Shown: positions 8,888-61,946 of the stretch, piece by piece
Numbering within the stretch: the stretch's first letter is position 1
How the letters are laid out: each line of letters opens with the position of its first letter
Assembly (NCBI GenBank): GCA_963851055.1
Contig: CAWKMY010000006.1
Coordinates: 142,965-206,964 of the forward strand
Direction: 5' to 3'
Source of the DNA: an uncultured bacterium
GTDB lineage: Bacteria > Patescibacteriota > Minisyncoccia > Phycocordibacterales > PALSA-1337
DNA length: 64,000 bases
Program-made: the position numbers and the translations under genes
Notes under the pieces: generated by a model
The model's input: only the letters and a program-made list of their open reading frames with translations
The model's database searches: none
Told to the model about the DNA's origin: nothing

Positions 8888-8962
8888 CGCCCTCGTCGTT
8901 CAACGGATAGGACGCAGGATTGCGGATCCTGCAATAGAGGTTCGATTCCTCTCGGGGGCACC
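8888..8962 (+). tRNA. tRNA-Arg (anticodon GCG), CCA encoded
   Basis: Acceptor GCCCTCG/CGGGGGC, anticodon stem CAGGA/TCCTG with loop TTGCGGA, T-loop GGTTCGATTCC, 3' CCA. Confidence 0.85.
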
Positions 8963-8966
8963 AATA

Positions 8967-8997
8967 CAAAAAACACCTGATAATTTCTGGTGTTTTT
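8967..8997. terminator. Bidirectional intrinsic terminator
   Basis: AAAAAACACC / GGTGTTTTTT forms a 10-bp stem with an A-run and a T-run. It sits between tRNA-Arg (+) and a convergent (-) ORF. Confidence 0.55.
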
Positions 8998-9000
8998 TGT

Positions 9001-24924: not shown

Positions 24925-25086
24925 TTATGTTGACATTTGTCATAATTACTGTATAGTTTGAAAAGAAATTGAGTCCCAACATACTTATGTTTTACGGTAG
25001 TATTCTGTCTATTTATTGTAGATAGAGTACTGCTGTAAGAGCAGAACGGATGCATGAAGCACCGTTAACCTGAAAGAGGTAATAGT

Positions 25087-25554
25087 ATGTTCGGAAAAAT
25101 AAAAAACACAGCCAGCAAAACAGATAACTACTTATTGGAAATGGCCAGGGCAATGCTTGAAGAGACCCTCAAACATGAAGTCCTCATACTCCAGTCAAAA
25201 TTAGTTTACGAGAAACCGTTCGATCCTTATAAGGATAAAAGTCAGTGGATTATCGCCGCAAGGAAGTTTTCATCGGAGGCGCGAGATGTGAGACTTGATC
25301 TCCTTTATCGGTCGAGCGAACCTACTGGAGGTGAGAAATCGGTAGTTATCGAGTTCACTTTGGCCAAGGAGACGACCAGTTATAGCTGGGATATCTTACG
25401 GGCATTTTTGCACTTTCCTGAAAGTCCTGGAGTTGAAGGGAAACGCGTTGGTTATTTTTTTGGTATCGACGCCGGAGCAGATAATGCATCTGATAAAATT
25501 AAAGGCCTTTCCTTAATCCTTCGGGGCATGGCAAGGTTTGTGCAGATTAAATAG
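25087..25554 (+). CDS. Hypothetical protein
   Basis: A 155-aa ORF in the AT-rich patch. No recognised motif. Confidence 0.4.
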   Translation: MFGKIKNTASKTDNYLLEMARAMLEETLKHEVLILQSKLVYEKPFDPYKDKSQWIIAARKFSSEARDVRLDLLYRSSEPTGGEKSVVIEFTLAKETTSYSWDILRAFLHFPESPGVEGKRVGYFFGIDAGADNASDKIKGLSLILRGMARFVQIK

Positions 25555-30404: not shown

Positions 30405-31445
30405 ATGAAACATTCAGATATCCTTATAACTAAGCCTTGCGCCGACTATGAACTTATCGATTCCGGTGAAGGTGAGAAATTAGAACGCTTTGGCAAAGTG
30501 ATTCTCGCTAGGCCGGATCCGCAGGCTTTGTGGCCAAAGCGCCTTTCCGCCGCCGAATGGAAAAAAGCCGACGGGACTTTCGGCAGAGTAAGCAGTTCCA
30601 AAAAAGGAGAAGGTGAGAAAGGAGAAAGGGGTGATTGGTCGCTGGATAAAAAAGCCCAGGAGCCCTGGGTCATTGATTTTGCCAATCTGAAGCTGCGTAT
30701 AAAGCCGACGGCTTTCAAGCATGTCGGGCTTTTTCCGGAGCAGGCGATGAATTGGGAGTGGTTAAGGAATTTGATTAATCGCGAAGCGACACTGCAGGGT
30801 GAAGGGACCTTGCGAGCGCGTCGGCGCGAGCACGAGGAATTTTCCAGCAGGAAAATATCCGTGTCCCTGAATCCTGTGGTGACGCGGAGCGATGATATTG
30901 AAGTCCTCAACCTTTTCGGCTATACCGGCGGCGCCACTCTAGCTTGCGCTCAAGCCGGTGCCAAAGTCGTGCACATAGATGGGTCAAAGACCGCCGTGAC
31001 TTGGGCTAGGGAAAATGCTGAATTGTCTGGTCTCAAAGATAAGCCTATACGCTGGATTGTCGAAGATGCAAGAGCCTTTGTTGAACGAGAGTTGAAGCGT
31101 GGCAAGTCTTATGACGGTATTATCATGGATCCACCAGCATTCGGTCATGGTCCGGAAAATGAATTGTGGAAGATAGAGGAACATTTTCTGAAACTTATAG
31201 AGGATTGTAAAAAGCTTTTGAAGCCAAAACCACTTTTCTTTCTCATCAACGGATATTCAGCGGGATATTCAGCGGTAGCTTATGAAAATAATCTCCTACC
31301 TTTAAAGGAAAAGTTTGGCGGAAATATTGAAACAGGGGAATTGGCTATAGAAGAGAGTAGAAAGAAGCAAGGAGAAGGAATTAAGGAGGAAAACGCGGCG
31401 CGCCTTCTGCCATGCGGCATTTTTGCCAGGTGGGCGTTAAAATAG
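30405..31445 (+). CDS. Class I SAM-dependent (RlmI/RlmK-like) methyltransferase
   Basis: SAM-binding block VLNLFGYTGGATLACAQAGAKVVHIDGS and DGIIMDPPAFG. Confidence 0.7.
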   Translation: MKHSDILITKPCADYELIDSGEGEKLERFGKVILARPDPQALWPKRLSAAEWKKADGTFGRVSSSKKGEGEKGERGDWSLDKKAQEPWVIDFANLKLRIKPTAFKHVGLFPEQAMNWEWLRNLINREATLQGEGTLRARRREHEEFSSRKISVSLNPVVTRSDDIEVLNLFGYTGGATLACAQAGAKVVHIDGSKTAVTWARENAELSGLKDKPIRWIVEDARAFVERELKRGKSYDGIIMDPPAFGHGPENELWKIEEHFLKLIEDCKKLLKPKPLFFLINGYSAGYSAVAYENNLLPLKEKFGGNIETGELAIEESRKKQGEGIKEENAARLLPCGIFARWALK

Positions 31446-32351: not shown

Positions 32352-32381
32352 CCTTAATCTTGTTCCTCCTCATTCACTTAC

Positions 32382-32409
32382 CCCCGAGCAAACGAAAGTT
32401 TGCTCGGGG
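32382..32409 (+). promoter_or_regulatory. Perfect 12-bp hairpin with GAAA tetraloop downstream of VR (DGR target-recognition-type hairpin/cruciform)
   Basis: CCCCGAGCAAAC-GAAA-GTTTGCTCGGGG, starting 30 nt after the target stop codon. Confidence 0.75.
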
Positions 32410-32536
32410 TGTATCTTTTATGCCATTATTATCGTGGTTGTTAAATTGGTCTACCTCGCCATTCGCCAGCTGGTGAAGGCGGAGCAGATAACAATTTGCC
32501 ATATAAAGAAACTGCCTGTCTCTTTTTATACTATGC

Positions 32537-35582: not shown

Positions 35583-36129
35583 ATGGCAAAACAATTCACA
35601 ACAGGAGAGCGATCATGGTACGCCATACACACGTATGCCGGCTATGAGAACGCGGTTGCCCGTAATCTAAAGCAGCGTATAGAATCTCTCGGCATGGAGG
35701 ACAAGATATTCAGTGTTGTTGTCCCGACCGAAAAGAAGATCAAGGTAAAGTCCGGCAAGCGCGTCGAAGAGGAAGAGAAGATATATCCAGGATATGTCTT
35801 GGTGGAGATGATCGTCACCGAAGATTCATGGTATGTAGTGCGCAATACGCCTCGTGTGACCGGCTTCGTCGGTTCCGGCGTCAACCCTGTGCCATTGGAT
35901 CCAAAGGAAGTCGAGACTCTTGTTCAGCCGCATGTCTGCTAGCCAGACCGAGCATGCTATAGACCTCTCCGAAGGCGACTTGGTCAAGGTCTCAGATGGC
36001 CCATTCAAAGACTTCGAAGGCAAGGTTGCCGAGGTTGATACCCAGCGCGGCAAGATCAAAGTGCTCGTATCCATGTTCGGCCGCGAGACTCCTGTTGAGT
36101 TGGATTTCTTGCAAGTAAAGAAGGTTTAA
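35583..36129 (+). CDS. nusG: Transcription antiterminator NusG, interrupted by one frameshift near 35915-35925
   Basis: The NGN domain is in ORF 35583..35942 and the KOW domain ([22 protein letters not shown]) in ORF 35920..36129. Joining them needs a 1-nt correction. Confidence 0.8.
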
Positions 36130-36156: not shown

Positions 36157-36579
36157 ATGGCCAAAAAAGTAATCAAAAAAGTAAAAGTTATAGCCCCAGC
36201 CGGCAAGGCCACTCCAGCGCCTCCACTCGGTCCTACTTCGGTCAGGCTGGCGTCAATATCGGCGATTTCACCAAGAAATTTAATGAGGCTACAAAGGGCA
36301 TGATGGGAGACATGATACCTGTCGTCATCTCTGTGTACGAAGATCGTTCTTATGATTTCGTCCTCAAGACTCCACCTACTTCCAGTTTGATTTTGAAGGT
36401 TTTGAAGAAAGAGAAGGGTTCGGGTAAGCCGAACCTCGAGAAGATCGGTACTCTCACAAAGGCTCAGTTAAAAGAGATTGCTGAAAAGAAGATGCCTGAT
36501 CTCAATGCGGGAAATGTAGAAGCTGCTATGAAAGGTTGTAGCGGGTACTGCTAGTCAGATGGGAGTGGATGTGAAGTAG
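36157..36579 (+). CDS. rplK: 50S ribosomal protein L11, interrupted by two frame breaks (near 36229-36240 and 36531-36536)
   Basis: [27 protein letters not shown] is in one frame. [37 protein letters not shown]...AAMK is in a second. [14 protein letters not shown] returns to the first. Confidence 0.8.
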
Positions 36580-36586
36580 AGGCTTC

Positions 36587-36700
36587 GAAAAACATCACTC
36601 TCGAGGAAACGTTCGGAGGTCTGCAGACCTCCTCACTCGGTTCTCGACGATTTCCTTGCTAGGAAATCGCCTGCGAATGTTCCTCGATAGTATGTTTTTC
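36587..36700. repeat. Compound palindromic element, copy A (long outer stem enclosing two hairpins)
   Basis: The outer arms are GAAAAACATCACTCTCGAGGAAACGTTCG and CGAATGTTCCTCGATAGTATGTTTTTC. Inner hairpins are GGAGGTC-TGCA-GACCTCC and CGATTTCC-TTGCTA-GGAAATCG. It lies between convergent genes. Confidence 0.6.
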
Positions 36701-36708
36701 TTCACCCA

Positions 36709-37224
36709 TCATTTCACCGGAAGATCCACTTCATATTCCAAGAGTAATGCACCATCCTCCGATTTGGTTGAATCAATAAGTTTCAATTTGTAGTTCAAAC
36801 TTTCCTTGAAAAGCCTTATCCCATCACCGAATATTACCGGTTCAACAGTCAAATAAAGCTTATTTACCAAGCCTGATTTCATGAACATGGTATAGACCAT
36901 AGAGCCGCCGCAGATGGCGACTTCTTTGAAACCACGACTCTCTATCTCGGCTAATAATTCGGATGGACTTTTCGTAGTGGTCTCCACACTCTCTGGCATG
37001 TCAGCCAGCCTCTCCGGTGAATAGACGATATTCACGCGATCCTTCAAAGCCCTCCCGCCGAAGGTCTTCCATGTATTCTGGCCCATGACTACTACACCGG
37101 CGCGCTTGGATATCTCCACGAAACGCTTTTTATCAGCTTTACTGGTCCACGCCGTTGACGGCGCGGATGAGTCGCGAGCTATGTAACCATCTGCGGACAG
37201 AGCGGCGATGATGAAACATTGCAT
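36709..37224 (-). CDS. Dihydrofolate reductase family protein (RibD C-terminal-like)
   Basis: FIIAALSADGYIA..., VVVMGQNTWKTF, VNIVYS, ICGGSMVY pattern. Confidence 0.7.
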   Translation of the reverse strand: MQCFIIAALSADGYIARDSSAPSTAWTSKADKKRFVEISKRAGVVVMGQNTWKTFGGRALKDRVNIVYSPERLADMPESVETTTKSPSELLAEIESRGFKEVAICGGSMVYTMFMKSGLVNKLYLTVEPVIFGDGIRLFKESLNYKLKLIDSTKSEDGALLLEYEVDLPVK

Positions 37225-49841: not shown

Positions 49842-51795
49842 ATGATAGGGATGCCACCAGATGACGATAAAAATCGCCTTGAAGAATTGAAAAAGTCGCT
49901 CTATTCCCGGAGCGCTCCTGATGTTCGGACAAGGCGCAAATTGCGCTTCTCGGAAGCACCGACAGGAGATGTCAAAAGTGCTTGGGAAGAGCCGAAAGAA
50001 ACAGAAAATCAACCGCATTTGAACGACGCGTACGAAGATCATTCAATGTCATTTTTCACCAAACTCCTCATAGCGTCGGTGATCTTTTGCGTCATAGCGG
50101 TTGGCATCGGGGCTTACCTTTTTCTGAACGGGTCAAACCTCGTTTCGGGCAACAACATAGACATATCGATAAGCGGCCCGGTCTCAATACCAGGCGGGGA
50201 ACCGGTCTCATTCGGCATCAAGGTGACCAACAATAACAATGTCGGTCTCCAATTAGTCGACATGTCCGTAGCTTTTCCGGCTGGTGCCACAGATCCCAAT
50301 GATTCGACCAAAGCCCTAAGCACCCATGAACAGCTTCTAGGAGACATGCCGTCCGGAGCAGCTACGTCCACTTCTGTCTCCGCCATCATATTCGGTGAGG
50401 AGAATACACAAAAGGAGATCACGGTGACTTTGACTTATTCGATCAACGGCTCGTCGGCGGTATTCACAAAACAGCAGACTTACGACGTCTTGATTAATTC
50501 TTCGCCGATCACCGTATCCGTATCTTCATTCTCCTCCATCACCTCCGGGCAATCTTTCGACATGACGGTAAATTTGAAGTCCAATTCCCAGGATACTTTG
50601 AAGAACGTCATCCTCAAAGCCCAATATCCATTCGGTTACACCTTCACTTCATCAAATCTTACCTCCATTGTCTGATAATGCCACTTGGAAGATAGGGGAT
50701 ATACCGCCAGGCGGATCGCAGTCGATAATTATTCACGGCACTTTGCTGGGCGAAGACACCGATGTTCGGGCTTTCCATTTCTCTGTTGGGGCCGAGAGCT
50801 CCGGCAACGCGGCCATTATAGGAACCGAATACGGCATGGTCGAGCAGGATATGACCATAGAGAAGCCTTTTATAAGCCTGGGATTGGTCATCGACGGAGA
50901 TTCCAATACCGGAGCCCACGTGGGGGCTTTCAATCAAGCAGAAAGGGTGACGGTCACATGGTTCAACAATCTGCCGACCGCGGTATCCGATGTCATCATC
51001 ACTGCCAAGTTGTCCGGTTCCGCTTATGACAAGACCAAAGTCCAGCCGGATGGCAGCTACTTCGATTCGGCCAACGACCAAATCATATGGAATCCGCAGA
51101 CAAATCCGGAACTCGCCTCGGTCATGGCCGGTGGTAGCGGCACTTTGTCATTCATCATAACGCCGGCAGACCTCGGCACGTCGGCTAGTCCTATCATTAA
51201 CCCGGTCATATCCGTTTCCGCCAACGTATCGGCTAATCGTACGCAGGAGTCAGGAGTCTCCGGCATTTTGTCGGCGGCACAGAGCCGTACTATCGAGGTG
51301 GCCTCGAACTTGGCTCTTTCAGGACGTCTGGTCCATTCGGTCGGTCCGTTCACCAATACCGGTCCTATACCGCCAAAAGTCGAGCAGAAGACTACTTATA
51401 CGGTGATCTGGACGATAGGCAATACTTCCAATGTTGCCGACAACGCGGAGGTCACGGCCACATTGCCTCCGTACGTCTCATGGCTCGGCAATGTCAGTCC
51501 TTCCACGGAGAATATAACTTATGACAAGAATAGCGGTACGGTAACCTGGAGCGCCGGTACGGTCAGCGCCGGTACGTCGGCCAATTCCGCTAACCGCCGC
51601 GAAGTAGATTTCCAGATAGCCATCGACCCGAGCATAAACCAAGTCGGTACCGTACCGACCATGGTCAATTCCGCGACATTGAACGCAACCGATGATTTCA
51701 CCGGTTCGACTCTACAGAGCACCCAGGACTATCTTACGACGAGCTACAGCACCGACCCCGGCTTCGTAGCGGGTGATGAGACCGTGGTTCAGTAA
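49842..51795 (+). CDS. Large membrane-anchored surface protein with Ig-like (DUF11/CARDB-type) repeats, one frame break near 50660-50668
   Basis: ORFs 49842..50675 and 50668..51795 share repeat architecture. Together they read as one protein (...FTSSNLTS|LSDNATWKIGDIPPG...) after a 1-nt correction. Confidence 0.55.
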
Positions 51796-53195: not shown

Positions 53196-53270
53196 GTAGG
53201 CGGGAGAAGGGATGCAATGGGTGCAAGAAGTGGCACAAGAAGCGCGAGAGTTTATGTCTGTATGGGGGGG

Positions 53271-53326
53271 TGACGAAAATATTTCGTCAATGGCTCAAAA
53301 TAAGGGATGACGAAAAAAGTTCGTCA
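53271..53326. promoter_or_regulatory. Twin 19-bp palindromes TGACGAA-N5-TTCGTCA flanked by a G-run and a C-run
   Basis: TGACGAAAATATTTCGTCA is at 53271-53289 and TGACGAAAAAAGTTCGTCA at 53308-53326. G7 lies upstream and C5 downstream. Confidence 0.4.
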
Positions 53327-53486
53327 CCCCCTAACGATGGGAAAGGCACGTTCCCCCCGAGTACCTATTAAAAGTGACCTGCCTGTCCGGCAGGTATGCA
53401 AGAAGATTGACACTTTGGTGGAGTGACAGAAAAGACCTCCCCAGTTTCTCTCTGACAAAGTACAGTCAATCAGGTATCATATCCTC

Positions 53487-60340: not shown

Positions 60341-60544
60341 ATGAAAAAACAGTGTTATTTCTCACAACATAATATAAAGCATATCGATTACAAGGACACA
60401 GAAGTCCTGAAGAAGTTCATCAACCCGCACGGCCGCATGATAGCCAGGAAGCGTACCGGTATCAGCGCCAAGTATCAGCGCCAGTTGGCTGCGGCTATAA
60501 AGAGGGCTAGGTTTATGGGGCTTCTGCCGTATGTTGCAAGCTAG
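60341..60544 (+). CDS. rpsR: 30S ribosomal protein S18
   Basis: [50 protein letters not shown]. Confidence 0.9.
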
Positions 60545-60551
60545 TGATTAG

Positions 60552-60673
60552 AGGAGAACAAGAAACAGCACATCGGAAACTCGAAAGACCCCTGCAGGGG
60601 TCTTTCTGTCCTCGGAGATTTCCTGCTGAAAATCTCCTGCGGATGTTTCCTCAATGTTGTTTCCTGTTCTCCT
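60552..60673. repeat. Compound palindromic element, copy B (same architecture as 36587-36700)
   Basis: The outer arms are AGGAGAACAAGAAACAGCACATCGGAAAC and GTTTCCTCAATGTTGTTTCCTGTTCTCCT. Inner hairpins are GAAAGACCCC-TGCA-GGGGTCTTTC and GGAGATTT...AAATCTCC. It lies between the convergent rpsR and efp. Confidence 0.6.
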
Positions 60674-61244
60674 ACTTACCAACTCTCTCGCGATACTCGC
60701 CGGTTTCTGTGTTGATCCTAATGACGTCGCCTTCATTGACGAAAAGGGGAACGTTGATTTCGGTACCGGTCTCGAGCTTTACTGTTTTTGAACCACCGGT
60801 CACAGTGTCGCCCTTAACTGCTGGTTGTGCTTCGGTTACCTTTAGGTCAGCGGTAATAGGCATACGGAATCCCATAGGCTGTTCATTGAAAAGGAATTGG
60901 CCGACGACTGTATTTGGCTTGAGGAATTTACCTTGAGGTCCGACTTGTTCCTCGGTTACTTTGAAACGTTTTGAAGAGTTCTCGGCTTCGCTGAACCACC
61001 ATTCGCCGCGATTGTTATAGAGATACTTGACCTCGCGCTCTTCTATCTCCGCTTCCTCAACCTTGTCTGATACGTGGAATGAGTACTCTGTGACTTTACC
61101 TGTCATGAGGTTTTTGAGCTTTGTGGCGTTGACCGGTTTGCGCTGTTGCTTGCGGAAGACGTGGGCAGAAATGACCTCGTATGGAGTGCCGTCCATGACG
61201 ATGTATTTCTTTTCGGTTATATCGCTGTATTCGAGGAGGGACAT
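60672..61244 (-). CDS. efp: Elongation factor P
   Basis: A 190-aa EF-P with three OB/KOW-like domains (VMDGTPYEVISAHVFRKQQRKPV...). Confidence 0.9.
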   Translation of the reverse strand: MSLLEYSDITEKKYIVMDGTPYEVISAHVFRKQQRKPVNATKLKNLMTGKVTEYSFHVSDKVEEAEIEEREVKYLYNNRGEWWFSEAENSSKRFKVTEEQVGPQGKFLKPNTVVGQFLFNEQPMGFRMPITADLKVTEAQPAVKGDTVTGGSKTVKLETGTEINVPLFVNEGDVIRINTETGEYRERVGK

Positions 61245-61362: not shown

Positions 61363-61608
61363 TCAATCATACGCCTTGTCTCTAGGATCAATCTCGATTA
61401 TTTTCGCCTCGTGATTTTCAATGACAAATTTCAGGCGATGCTTGCCAACTCGGAATCTATAGCATTTCTTTATGGCTATATATTTGGCGAAAACAAAGAT
61501 ATTTCCTTGTTTCATAAAGAACCGTACTTTGTCTCGTATCCGTACCTGTGTGCCAAAGGGAAGCTCGCCGAGCTGGTCTTCGGCTTGATAAGAGAAGTAA
61601 ATATTCAT
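61363..61608 (-). CDS. RelE/ParE-family toxin
   Basis: YRFRVGKHRLKFVIENHEAKIIEIDPRDKAY. It lies downstream of an antitoxin gene with a 4-nt gap. Confidence 0.7.
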   Translation of the reverse strand: MNIYFSYQAEDQLGELPFGTQVRIRDKVRFFMKQGNIFVFAKYIAIKKCYRFRVGKHRLKFVIENHEAKIIEIDPRDKAYD

Positions 61609-61612
61609 GTGA

Positions 61613-61849
61613 TTAGAGGCCTAGCCTTTTAAATACCTCTTCAGCCGGTCTAATCCTGCCTGCGCGGATATCCGCCATTCCTTGCTCGAAATTCCTATCT
61701 GAGGCGCTTATCTTCAACCTATTCTCGACATAAGCTCGAGTTGCAAAATTGAGGACGACGCTCAAATTCATGCCTTCCTTTCGGGCTTTTTTCATAGCCT
61801 CTTTCTTTAGAGTTGTGTCCATATTCATTATGACTTTAGAAGTTTTCAT
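61613..61849 (-). CDS. RelB/DinJ-like antitoxin (third paralog)
   Basis: MNMDTTLKKEAMKKARKEGMNLSVVLNFATRAY. The start is uncertain, at 61849 or 61828. Confidence 0.6.
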   Translation of the reverse strand: MKTSKVIMNMDTTLKKEAMKKARKEGMNLSVVLNFATRAYVENRLKISASDRNFEQGMADIRAGRIRPAEEVFKRLGL

Positions 61850-61946
61850 GTAATAACAGTATATATCTGGTATATACGCTGTCAAGATGCCAAACAAACC
61901 CCATTCTGCGACTACAGAACAAGGTTTGTGGGCGTCTTATTGATTT

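Follow-up and report, generated by a model that had tools for sequence, protein, structure and literature searches.

This locus raises the question of what kind of element fills the whole spacer between two convergent genes, rplK and a DHFR-like gene, with a similar element standing between rpsR and efp. Both copies, A and B, lie in the 64,000-nt stretch of DNA that was analysed here (the window, G+C 46%), which comes from an uncultured, Candidatus Taylorbacteria-like member (Paceibacteria) of the Patescibacteria (CPR), a group with tiny genomes for which next to nothing is known on repeats, non-coding RNAs and transcript-end signals. A sequence-only reading of the window had proposed that A and B belong to a dispersed family of structured elements and had left three options, an elaborate bidirectional terminator, a REP/MITE-like element or a small RNA. 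Based on folding, covariance-model searches and comparison of orthologous spacers we found that the REP/MITE-like option gave the best fit, that elaborate termination is at most a secondary role, and that no positive evidence speaks for a free-standing small RNA. We give about even odds (0.5) to the reading that A, B and a degenerate copy C represent a low-copy compound palindromic repeat family of Paceibacteria/Taylorbacteria-like genomes, a form of non-autonomous selfish DNA like MITEs, REPINs and Rickettsia RPEs. The family appears to be previously undescribed, judging from the absence of a match in Rfam, in phage/plasmid collections and in the literature searched.

Table 1. Copies A, B and C with their parts and neighbouring genes in the window, followed by family members at other loci. 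The minus strand given for A and B is the reference sense of the family (CAT.C.CAGG-H2-CGAGRAC-H1), which for these two copies is the reverse complement of the plus strand of the window.
Feature	Position	Strand	Basis or context
Copy A, whole compound palindrome	36587..36700	-	Fold and covariance-model match
Copy A outer stem, rplK-proximal arm GAAAAACATCACTCTCGAGGAAAC	36587..36610		Pairs with 36679-36700
Copy A hairpin H1 (P3), GGAGGTC-TGCA-GACCTCC	36615..36632		Sequence and fold
Copy A hairpin H2 (P2), 11-bp stem with GATTT/AAATC, GATTTCC included	36646..36671		Loop AGCA in reference sense
Copy A outer stem, DHFR-proximal arm	36679..36700		Fold
Copy B, whole compound palindrome	60552..60673	-	Fold, inverted-repeat listing and covariance-model match
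Copy B outer arms	60552..60580 and 60645..60673
Copy B hairpin H1, GAAAGACCCC-TGCA-GGGGTCTTTC	60583..60606		Sequence and fold
Copy B hairpin H2, GGAGATTTCC-TGCT-GAAAATCTCC	60614..60637		Sequence and fold
Copy C, divergent intragenic variant	30786..30885	+	Fold scan and covariance-model match (20 bits)
rplK (L11), upstream neighbour of copy A	36157..36579	+	Reading frame and comparison with L030 L11 protein
DHFR/RibD_C-like gene, convergent neighbour of copy A	36709..37224	-	PF00186, PF01872
rpsR (S18), upstream neighbour of copy B	60341..60544	+	Synteny S6-SSB-S18
efp, convergent neighbour of copy B	60672..61244	-
SAM-dependent methyltransferase gene hosting copy C	30405..31445	+	PF10672
L007/L008			rpsR/efp spacer; EF-P of this relative is 88% identical
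L025, first copy			Patescibacteria MAG, between co-directional exonuclease-like and DsbA-like genes
L030			rplK/DHFR spacer, syntenic with A
L031			Downstream of rplJ-rplL
L029/L032			Spacer flanked by glycosyltransferase-4 and ATP-grasp genes
L033			Spacer flanked by a LOG-like gene and a convergent RRM-protein gene

Annotation bore out the convergent setting of both copies. Copy A fills the spacer between the stop codons of rplK (36577-36579) and the DHFR-like gene (36709-36711); the true stop of rplK, whose frame is broken twice by 1-nt indels, lies 7 nt before it. Copy B fills the rpsR/efp spacer and overlaps the efp stop codon with its final 2 nt. Minimum free energy folding of each copy, on either strand, returned the long outer stem enclosing two hairpins that had been drawn on paper, with z-scores of -6.9 to -7.3 for A and -8.4 to -8.8 for B, and 0 of 200 shuffles folded as well in either case. 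In a sliding scan of all 64 kb, A and B were both within the top three most structured 130-nt segments. The shared details read from the letters held as well, namely a TGCA loop on different H1 stems, GATTTCC in hairpin 2, GGAAAC before hairpin 1 and CCTGCG(A/G)ATGTT(T)CCTC entering the 3' arm. A shared 17-mer was found in the window only within A and B at 0-1 mismatch, and in the reference sense the two align across their whole interior. With A and B at roughly 65%, the few copies within this genome are divergent. An inverted repeat at 50397-50536 was considered as a further copy and rejected, being coding sequence.

We used a covariance model built from eight members, which themselves score 60-84 bits, to look for further copies, and these were found. 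The model gave 76.3 bits for copy A (36598-36690, minus strand) and 66.5 bits for copy B, against a best control score of 15.6 bits in 171 kb of unrelated DNA. Together with nhmmer it gave matches in independent assemblies that reach E = 1e-15 to 1e-23, and it added two divergent members, copy C and a second copy in L025 (7223-7333, 30 bits). The family is thus dispersed, with homologous copies at other loci, in other Patescibacteria genomes and in metagenomes, and has at least ten members in about seven Patescibacteria contigs: A, B, C, L007 (= L008), L025 (two), L029 (= L032), L030, L031 and L033. A pattern scan of a genome collection gave one true match and a scan of metagenomes gave five true loci out of 12; both scans demanded GATTT...AAATC, so that GC-rich variants such as the second L025 copy were missed, and with ten members the statistics on diversity and context are biased. 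For the viral collection, a first pattern, GGAAN{0,1}CATYCRCAGGNGATTT, was too loose (10 of 10 viral matches were a phage gene) and a specific pattern gave chance matches only. Blastn against phage and plasmid collections gave no match, and spurious ORFs crossing the element, used as a concatenated six-frame protein query, gave nothing at E<=10. The sequence-only reading had matched no known family. Rfam (release 15) at gathering thresholds returned 8 tRNAs only for the whole window, and for L030 and L033 at E<=5 only sub-threshold chance matches to unrelated leaders and sRNAs. In the searchable literature we found no paper describing palindromic or MITE elements from CPR.

According to manual structural alignments in the reference sense, the unit spans about 110-150 nt and forms a three-way junction of an outer stem (P1), hairpin H2 (P2) and hairpin H1 (P3). 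Of P1, the inner 15-25 bp move together with the element and the outer part is specific to each locus. The 5' arm of P1 ends in (C/T)TC-GA-GG(A/T)A(A)C and is followed by the junction strand ATYCGCA, and CAT.C.CAGG is invariant in the eight canonical members. H2 is conserved in sequence, with a 10-11-bp stem of GG-N-GATTTyy / rrAAATC-N-CC and the loop AGCA; after it come the junction strand GAG(G/A)AC and a short linker. H1 has a 7-11-bp stem and the loop TGCA, and its stem sequence differs among most members with the pairing always kept. The junction strand after H1 measures 0-7 nt (2-5 nt in most members), and the 3' arm of P1 reads G(T)TTCC-GA-GGG... The junction strands CAT.C.CAGG and CGAGRAC are near-invariant and non-palindromic. 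In seven of ten members P1 holds an internal loop with 5'-GA-3' opposite 5'-GA-3', because CGAGG stands as a direct repeat in the two arms, and a third time in the central junction, and this asymmetry persists in L031, where the outer stem otherwise consists of 45 perfect Watson-Crick pairs.

The compensatory changes claimed for A and B proved abundant in all three helices of the family. In an alignment of nine members, 98.5% of 262 counted stem cells were standard pairs and both-side changes occurred in 22 of 35 base pairs, counts that come from an alignment hand-built around the structure and from a signal that a DNA palindrome gives equally on both strands. In helix 3 (H1) 9 of 11 informative pairs were changed on both sides, and helix 2 (H2) was 100% paired. 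None of 500 shuffles reached any of five pairing measures, and when the partners were slid by one column the pairing fell to 52-63%. It is plausible that selection on structure maintains the family, as had been suggested; DNA-level homogenisation of the palindrome could give the same pattern.

The orthologous spacers of relatives were compared for presence of the element. In the closest relatives (L001-L005, EF-P 93% identical) the rpsR/efp spacer is 39 nt long and carries a textbook simple bidirectional terminator and no element; where EF-P identity is 85-86%, the spacer contains another gene along with simple terminators, again with no element, and among the relatives compared only L007/L008 carry it. 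The rplK/DHFR spacer has no element in L038 (15 nt, on the same contig as L007), in L049 (5 nt), in L045 (61 nt with a simple terminator) or in L040-42 and L047 (extra genes). In L050, the closest relative by DHFR (89%), a simple hairpin begins after the stop codon and the element is apparently absent. Among the loci compared, the window and the distant L030 (DHFR 62% identical) were the only ones with the element at rplK/DHFR. Such presence/absence polymorphism at orthologous sites is a criterion by which MITEs are recognised. The core occurs together with the arm GGAGGAAAACATnnnnTCGAGGAAC both in the exonuclease/DsbA spacer of L025 and in the rplK/DHFR spacer of L030 and A, and a unit of about 125 nt was therefore copied from locus to locus. 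The inner arm ACATnnnnTCGAGGNAC is common within subfamilies and across non-syntenic loci (L025 vs L030 and A), and the outer 10-30 bp are locus-specific. No direct target-site duplication was recognisable at the ends of A, B, L025 and L030, where the flanks continue as inverted repeats.

In both syntenic pairs, B with L007 and A with L030, the core was found to be inverted relative to the flanking genes, the two orientations at one locus being seen between genomes only. Read from the sequences, the rplK-proximal arms of A and L030 are position-homologous; the outer portions of the arms keep their places in both copies (rplK side CATC(A)CTCTCGAGG, DHFR side CATAC), and the GGAAC/GGAAAC asymmetry flips with the core. 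Arms in place and an asymmetry moving with the core point to flipping by recombination between the arms, and not to two insertions. The outer arms of B and L007 are unalignable, yet complementary within each pair. Third-codon identity of the flanking genes was 0.46-0.51 between the window and L007 and 0.38 between the window and L030, so low that synonymous sites are saturated, and the cores are by eye about 88-90% identical across these comparisons. Core identity this high at saturated synonymous divergence may reflect constraint or recent spread. Gene annotation at 25-45 kb and 53-64 kb of the window showed no transposase, no RAYT or other partner gene was seen in the annotated window parts, and no recombinase adjoins the element at any locus examined.

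Additionally, two members were found inside genes, and in both the mRNA strand reads in the reference sense. The linker of a methyltransferase harbours copy C in frame; the copy is made up of an outer stem that carries the GA/GA loop, one further GC hairpin and a hairpin resembling H2 (GGAATTTTCC-AGCA-GGAAAATATCC), with no H1. It was the fourth most structured 130-nt segment in the 64-kb scan, and folding favours its sense strand over the antisense strand by 11 kcal/mol. The orthologous methyltransferase of L038 (64% identical overall) is without 18 aa at the position of copy C, within a surrounding linker that is unalignable. The second L025 copy is GC-rich and in frame inside a Toprim/DnaG-like ORF; the comparison with an orthologue free of the insertion covers copy C only. 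With these copies the family gives an example, outside Rickettsia, of essential-type genes that tolerate palindromic DNA.

Patchy presence, movement between loci, in-frame copies, passive inversion and the lack of an adjacent mobility gene together amount to the behaviour of a selfish palindromic repeat. Low copy number and divergent copies within the genome, unlike a recently amplified MITE, count against selfish DNA, as does the absence of a recognisable target-site duplication and, in the annotated window parts, of a transposase, RAYT or other partner. The strand-asymmetric junctions and GA/GA loop, which fit RNA or single-strand selection better, count against a purely double-stranded DNA parasite. 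We propose that the repeat would spread by a trans-acting function that reads the conserved asymmetric core, and that gene 3' ends, the places of simple bidirectional terminators in relatives, may be its preferred sites. The inverted arms on either side would let the core flip by recombination and would keep themselves complementary, and in the two window spacers the repeat would probably double as a bidirectional transcript-end structure. As a searchable motif, for which a covariance model is now built, the family marks genome plasticity between close relatives. A partner, if found, could reveal how elements move in organisms with few classical transposons.

Among known systems the Rickettsia RPEs come close. 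The element resembles them in size (about 100-150 nt), palindromic build, stable hairpin-like fold, low to moderate copy number in a reduced genome and lack of a linked transposase. RPEs, attributed to Ogata et al. 2000, reportedly occur intergenically and in frame inside genes at positions that the protein tolerates, and the element was likewise found both between genes and in frame, a likeness of behaviour, not of homology. It differs in belonging to another phylum with no known sequence relationship, and in its branched core with an invariant asymmetric junction, its locus-specific outer arms and its location mostly at gene 3' ends. With REP, BIME and REPIN elements it shares the position of an extragenic palindrome at gene 3' ends, often between convergent genes, compensatory conservation of structure, long persistence of recognisable sequence and proposed roles in mRNA 3'-end stabilisation or termination. 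In contrast to REPs and REPINs it has no GTAG-type 5' motif, its H1 and H2 are unrelated and therefore not an inverted doublet of one palindrome, its copy number is low, intragenic copies exist, and there is no RAYT in the annotated window parts. The MITEs Correia/NEMIS, ERIC and RUP, whose RNA forms long hairpins, are co-transcribed with neighbour genes and can act as terminators or RNase III targets. These resemble the element in length (about 100-150 nt), terminal inverted repeats, presence/absence polymorphism and occurrence in both orientations; the element differs in having no recognisable target-site duplication, in copies that diverge within the genome, and in outermost arms that vary by locus, the conserved part being the asymmetric interior and not the termini. 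Since it works like an RPE, MITE or REPIN but fails the defining features of REPs and classical MITEs, we file it as a dispersed bacterial palindromic repeat.

The invariant asymmetric junction suggests that some factor, a protein or RNA partner, reads the core on one strand, as RNA or as single-stranded DNA. It is conceivable, and we hold it to be a doubtful proposition, that an undescribed Patescibacteria system has the asymmetric three-way-junction core, GA/GA loop included, as its recognition module, this system being either a new structured-RNA class or a new kind of mobile element which is recognised as a single strand, builds or targets long palindromes and is able to live in frame in genes.

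Rather unlikely, in our estimate, is a structured RNA that a conserved protein or ribonuclease would recognise, be it a small RNA or an element acting in cis in the 3' UTR, with the copies as paralogous RNA genes or modules. Its case draws on the compensated and almost fully paired helices, on core conservation of about 90% across saturated synonymous divergence, on the tandem GA/GA loop kept even within a 45-bp otherwise perfect stem, and on three contexts that are ribosomal-protein operon ends (rplK, rpsR, rplL). In each of the 10 members the reference sense also gave the more stable fold, by 0.4-11.3 kcal/mol, and the reference sense of both intragenic copies is that of the mRNA. In the nine-member alignment the reference sense has 11 G.U and 4 unpaired cells, and the opposite strand 2 G.U and 13 unpaired, counts that are not independent since several G.U cells derive from one inherited motif beside the GA/GA loop. 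This asymmetry hints at selection on one strand. However, the orientation relative to flanking transcription units is inconsistent: of five informative copies, L029 and the two intragenic ones are sense and L025 and L031 antisense, copies between convergent genes being uninformative. The inversion of the core at both syntenic pairs also speaks against an RNA, as does its absence from close relatives, which means that it is not essential. The element fills its spacers and so leaves no room for a promoter, and none was predicted in them. Near-perfect Watson-Crick outer stems of 35-45 bp resemble DNA-level inverted repeats, and Rfam holds no match.

Several known RNA types were considered and rejected. 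A hammerhead or other small ribozyme was rejected by eye, with a junction lacking CUGANGA/GAAA and with no Rfam match, and a K-turn was rejected with a GA/GA loop that is symmetric and has no 3-nt bulge. A mimic of the 23S GTPase centre that binds L11/L10 was rejected as well: the element has in common with it GGAUGUU, which we take to be a 7-mer of that centre, one 7-mer only, many copies are unrelated to r-protein genes, and the orientation is inconsistent. The box C/D fold likewise contains tandem G.A pairs. The TIGR-Tas systems of CPR bacteria and phages consist of tandem stem-loop arrays with box C/D motifs beside Tas genes, and they share with the element their occurrence in Patescibacteria and variable, consistently palindromic stems around conserved short motifs (PMC12045711). 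A guide unit of this TIGR-Tas or box C/D-like kind was rejected, the element being solitary, with no conserved RUGAUGA or CUGA and no 3-nt bulge, and no Tas/Nop-domain gene was found near it in the annotated window parts.

An improbable alternative is that the element is a DNA-level site for a recombinase or single-strand-DNA enzyme, either an inverton with a core that flips between the long inverted arms or a site at which an HUH/tyrosine enzyme recognises a hairpin. Both core orientations at the same locus in related genomes, with the arms in place, would fit such a site, and CGAG(G/A), which occurs three times in direct orientation, each time beside a hairpin or arm, recalls strand-specific end recognition. 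However, passive inversion is possible between any inverted repeats, and the core has neither promoter nor ORF and lies between gene 3' ends, where flipping would have no obvious consequence. No recombinase adjoins any of the loci, and its unconserved sequence rules H1 out as another copy of a protein-specific hairpin. PATE/IS200-like ends were rejected, H1 not being a conserved hairpin, and so was an integron attC site (RYYYAAC ... GTTRRRY), with arms (GGAAAC ... GTTTCC) that misfit YYY/RRR and no cassette array or integrase at any locus.

That A and B are unrelated terminator palindromes, elaborated independently and alike by chance or convergence, is hardly credible and already contradicted: both do stand between convergent genes where relatives have terminators, and B-type H1 has a layout of A-run, GC stem and T-run, but long non-palindromic junction motifs are common to A, B and eight more members, covariance scores of 60-84 bits compare with no more than 15.6 bits in controls, copies also occur in co-directional spacers and inside ORFs, and no canonical terminator was detected.

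A role in transcript ending may nevertheless come on top of repeat behaviour. A consensus terminator scan found no canonical terminator inside A or B and no other terminator in either window spacer. As the element is the only structure available in both, it probably ends or stabilises the convergent transcripts, and a role as terminator or 3'-end stabiliser, at most secondary, would be a reasonable, if unproven, inference. The element occupies the exact spacers where relatives carry canonical bidirectional terminators, with their simple A-tract, GC hairpin and T-tract. The outer stem of A ends in T5 (by eye), the copy as a whole ending in ATGTTTTTC in both directions, and its type of H1 has no U-tract; H1 of B is weakly terminator-like both ways, unflagged by the consensus scan, and by eye H1 of B, L007 and L031 is flanked by A3-4/T3-4. 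In contrast to a bidirectional intrinsic terminator, the element is branched, about 115 nt long and also present between co-directional genes and in ORFs. A position at the 3' end of transcription units holds for A, B, L007, L030, L033 and L031, and not for the two intragenic copies; inside genes a terminator function would be harmful. A partner, if found, could also show how transcripts end at convergent genes that have no spare spacer. Elsewhere in the window there are short bidirectional intrinsic terminators, for example near 8960-9000 and 13640, and the organism thus uses the standard signal.

In relatives with 85-86% EF-P identity to the window (loci L019-L024), rpsR and efp are separated by an inserted PF05635 gene, which encodes a 23S-rRNA-intervening-sequence-type protein and lies at the site that copy B of the palindromic repeat occupies in the window. 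The element-bearing locus L032 (= L029), between a glycosyltransferase-4 gene and an ATP-grasp gene, has about 770 nt adjoining the element (L032 3290-4060, = L029 240-1010) without a convincing ORF; a non-coding gene may lie there, or the remains of a gene that has decayed.

Two further structured segments were noted in the window. The first is a very stable compound structure, joint most structured in the window, whose 3' limit is the start codon of the gene that begins at 25087. Its outer stem surrounds three hairpins, two of them small and one with a 19-bp stem. Its sequence is unrelated to that of the repeat. The second, a compound palindrome, is located inside a 291-nt spacer 3' of a class II aminoacyl-tRNA synthetase gene.

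Other features of the window.
Feature	Position	Details
Compound structure	24971-25100	-55 kcal/mol at 38% G+C
Strong GC hairpin	32379-32410	directly upstream of the RT-FolD ORF
RT-FolD ORF, 605 aa	32537-34354 (also L038 12728-14599)	RVT_1 domain, aa 20-222, and complete FolD
nusG	35583-35942 and 35920-36129	two overlapping ORFs; reading frame split
Isoleucyl-tRNA synthetase-like protein, 1165 aa	45632-49129	His_Phos_1 at aa 508-675
Compound palindrome	53266-53331	GGGGG-[TGACGAAA..TTTCGTCA]-18 nt-[TGACGAAA..TTCGTCA]-CCCCC
Pair of adjacent small ORFs (81 aa; 94 aa)	61363-61897	between efp and recA

The FolD part of the reverse transcriptase (RT) fusion corresponds to a complete THF dehydrogenase/cyclohydrolase. 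The same fusion was found with an adjoining bAvd gene in the genome of the relative that carries L007 and L038, and FolD occurs alone, without the RT, at L047. The ORF looks like the RT of a diversity-generating retroelement that is read through into folD. The rplK frame, at 36157-36579, contains two 1-nt indels, near codon 27 and at about 36532, and for both nusG and rplK assembly indel errors in homopolymers seem more likely than true pseudogenisation of these essential genes.

In the isoleucyl-tRNA synthetase-like protein the histidine-phosphatase domain is an insertion inside the catalytic domain, and two loci of relatives (L040 and L045) are listed with the same architecture. The small ORFs between efp and recA gave no Pfam match; the position of the pair is kept in L001-L008, and its layout is toxin-antitoxin-like.
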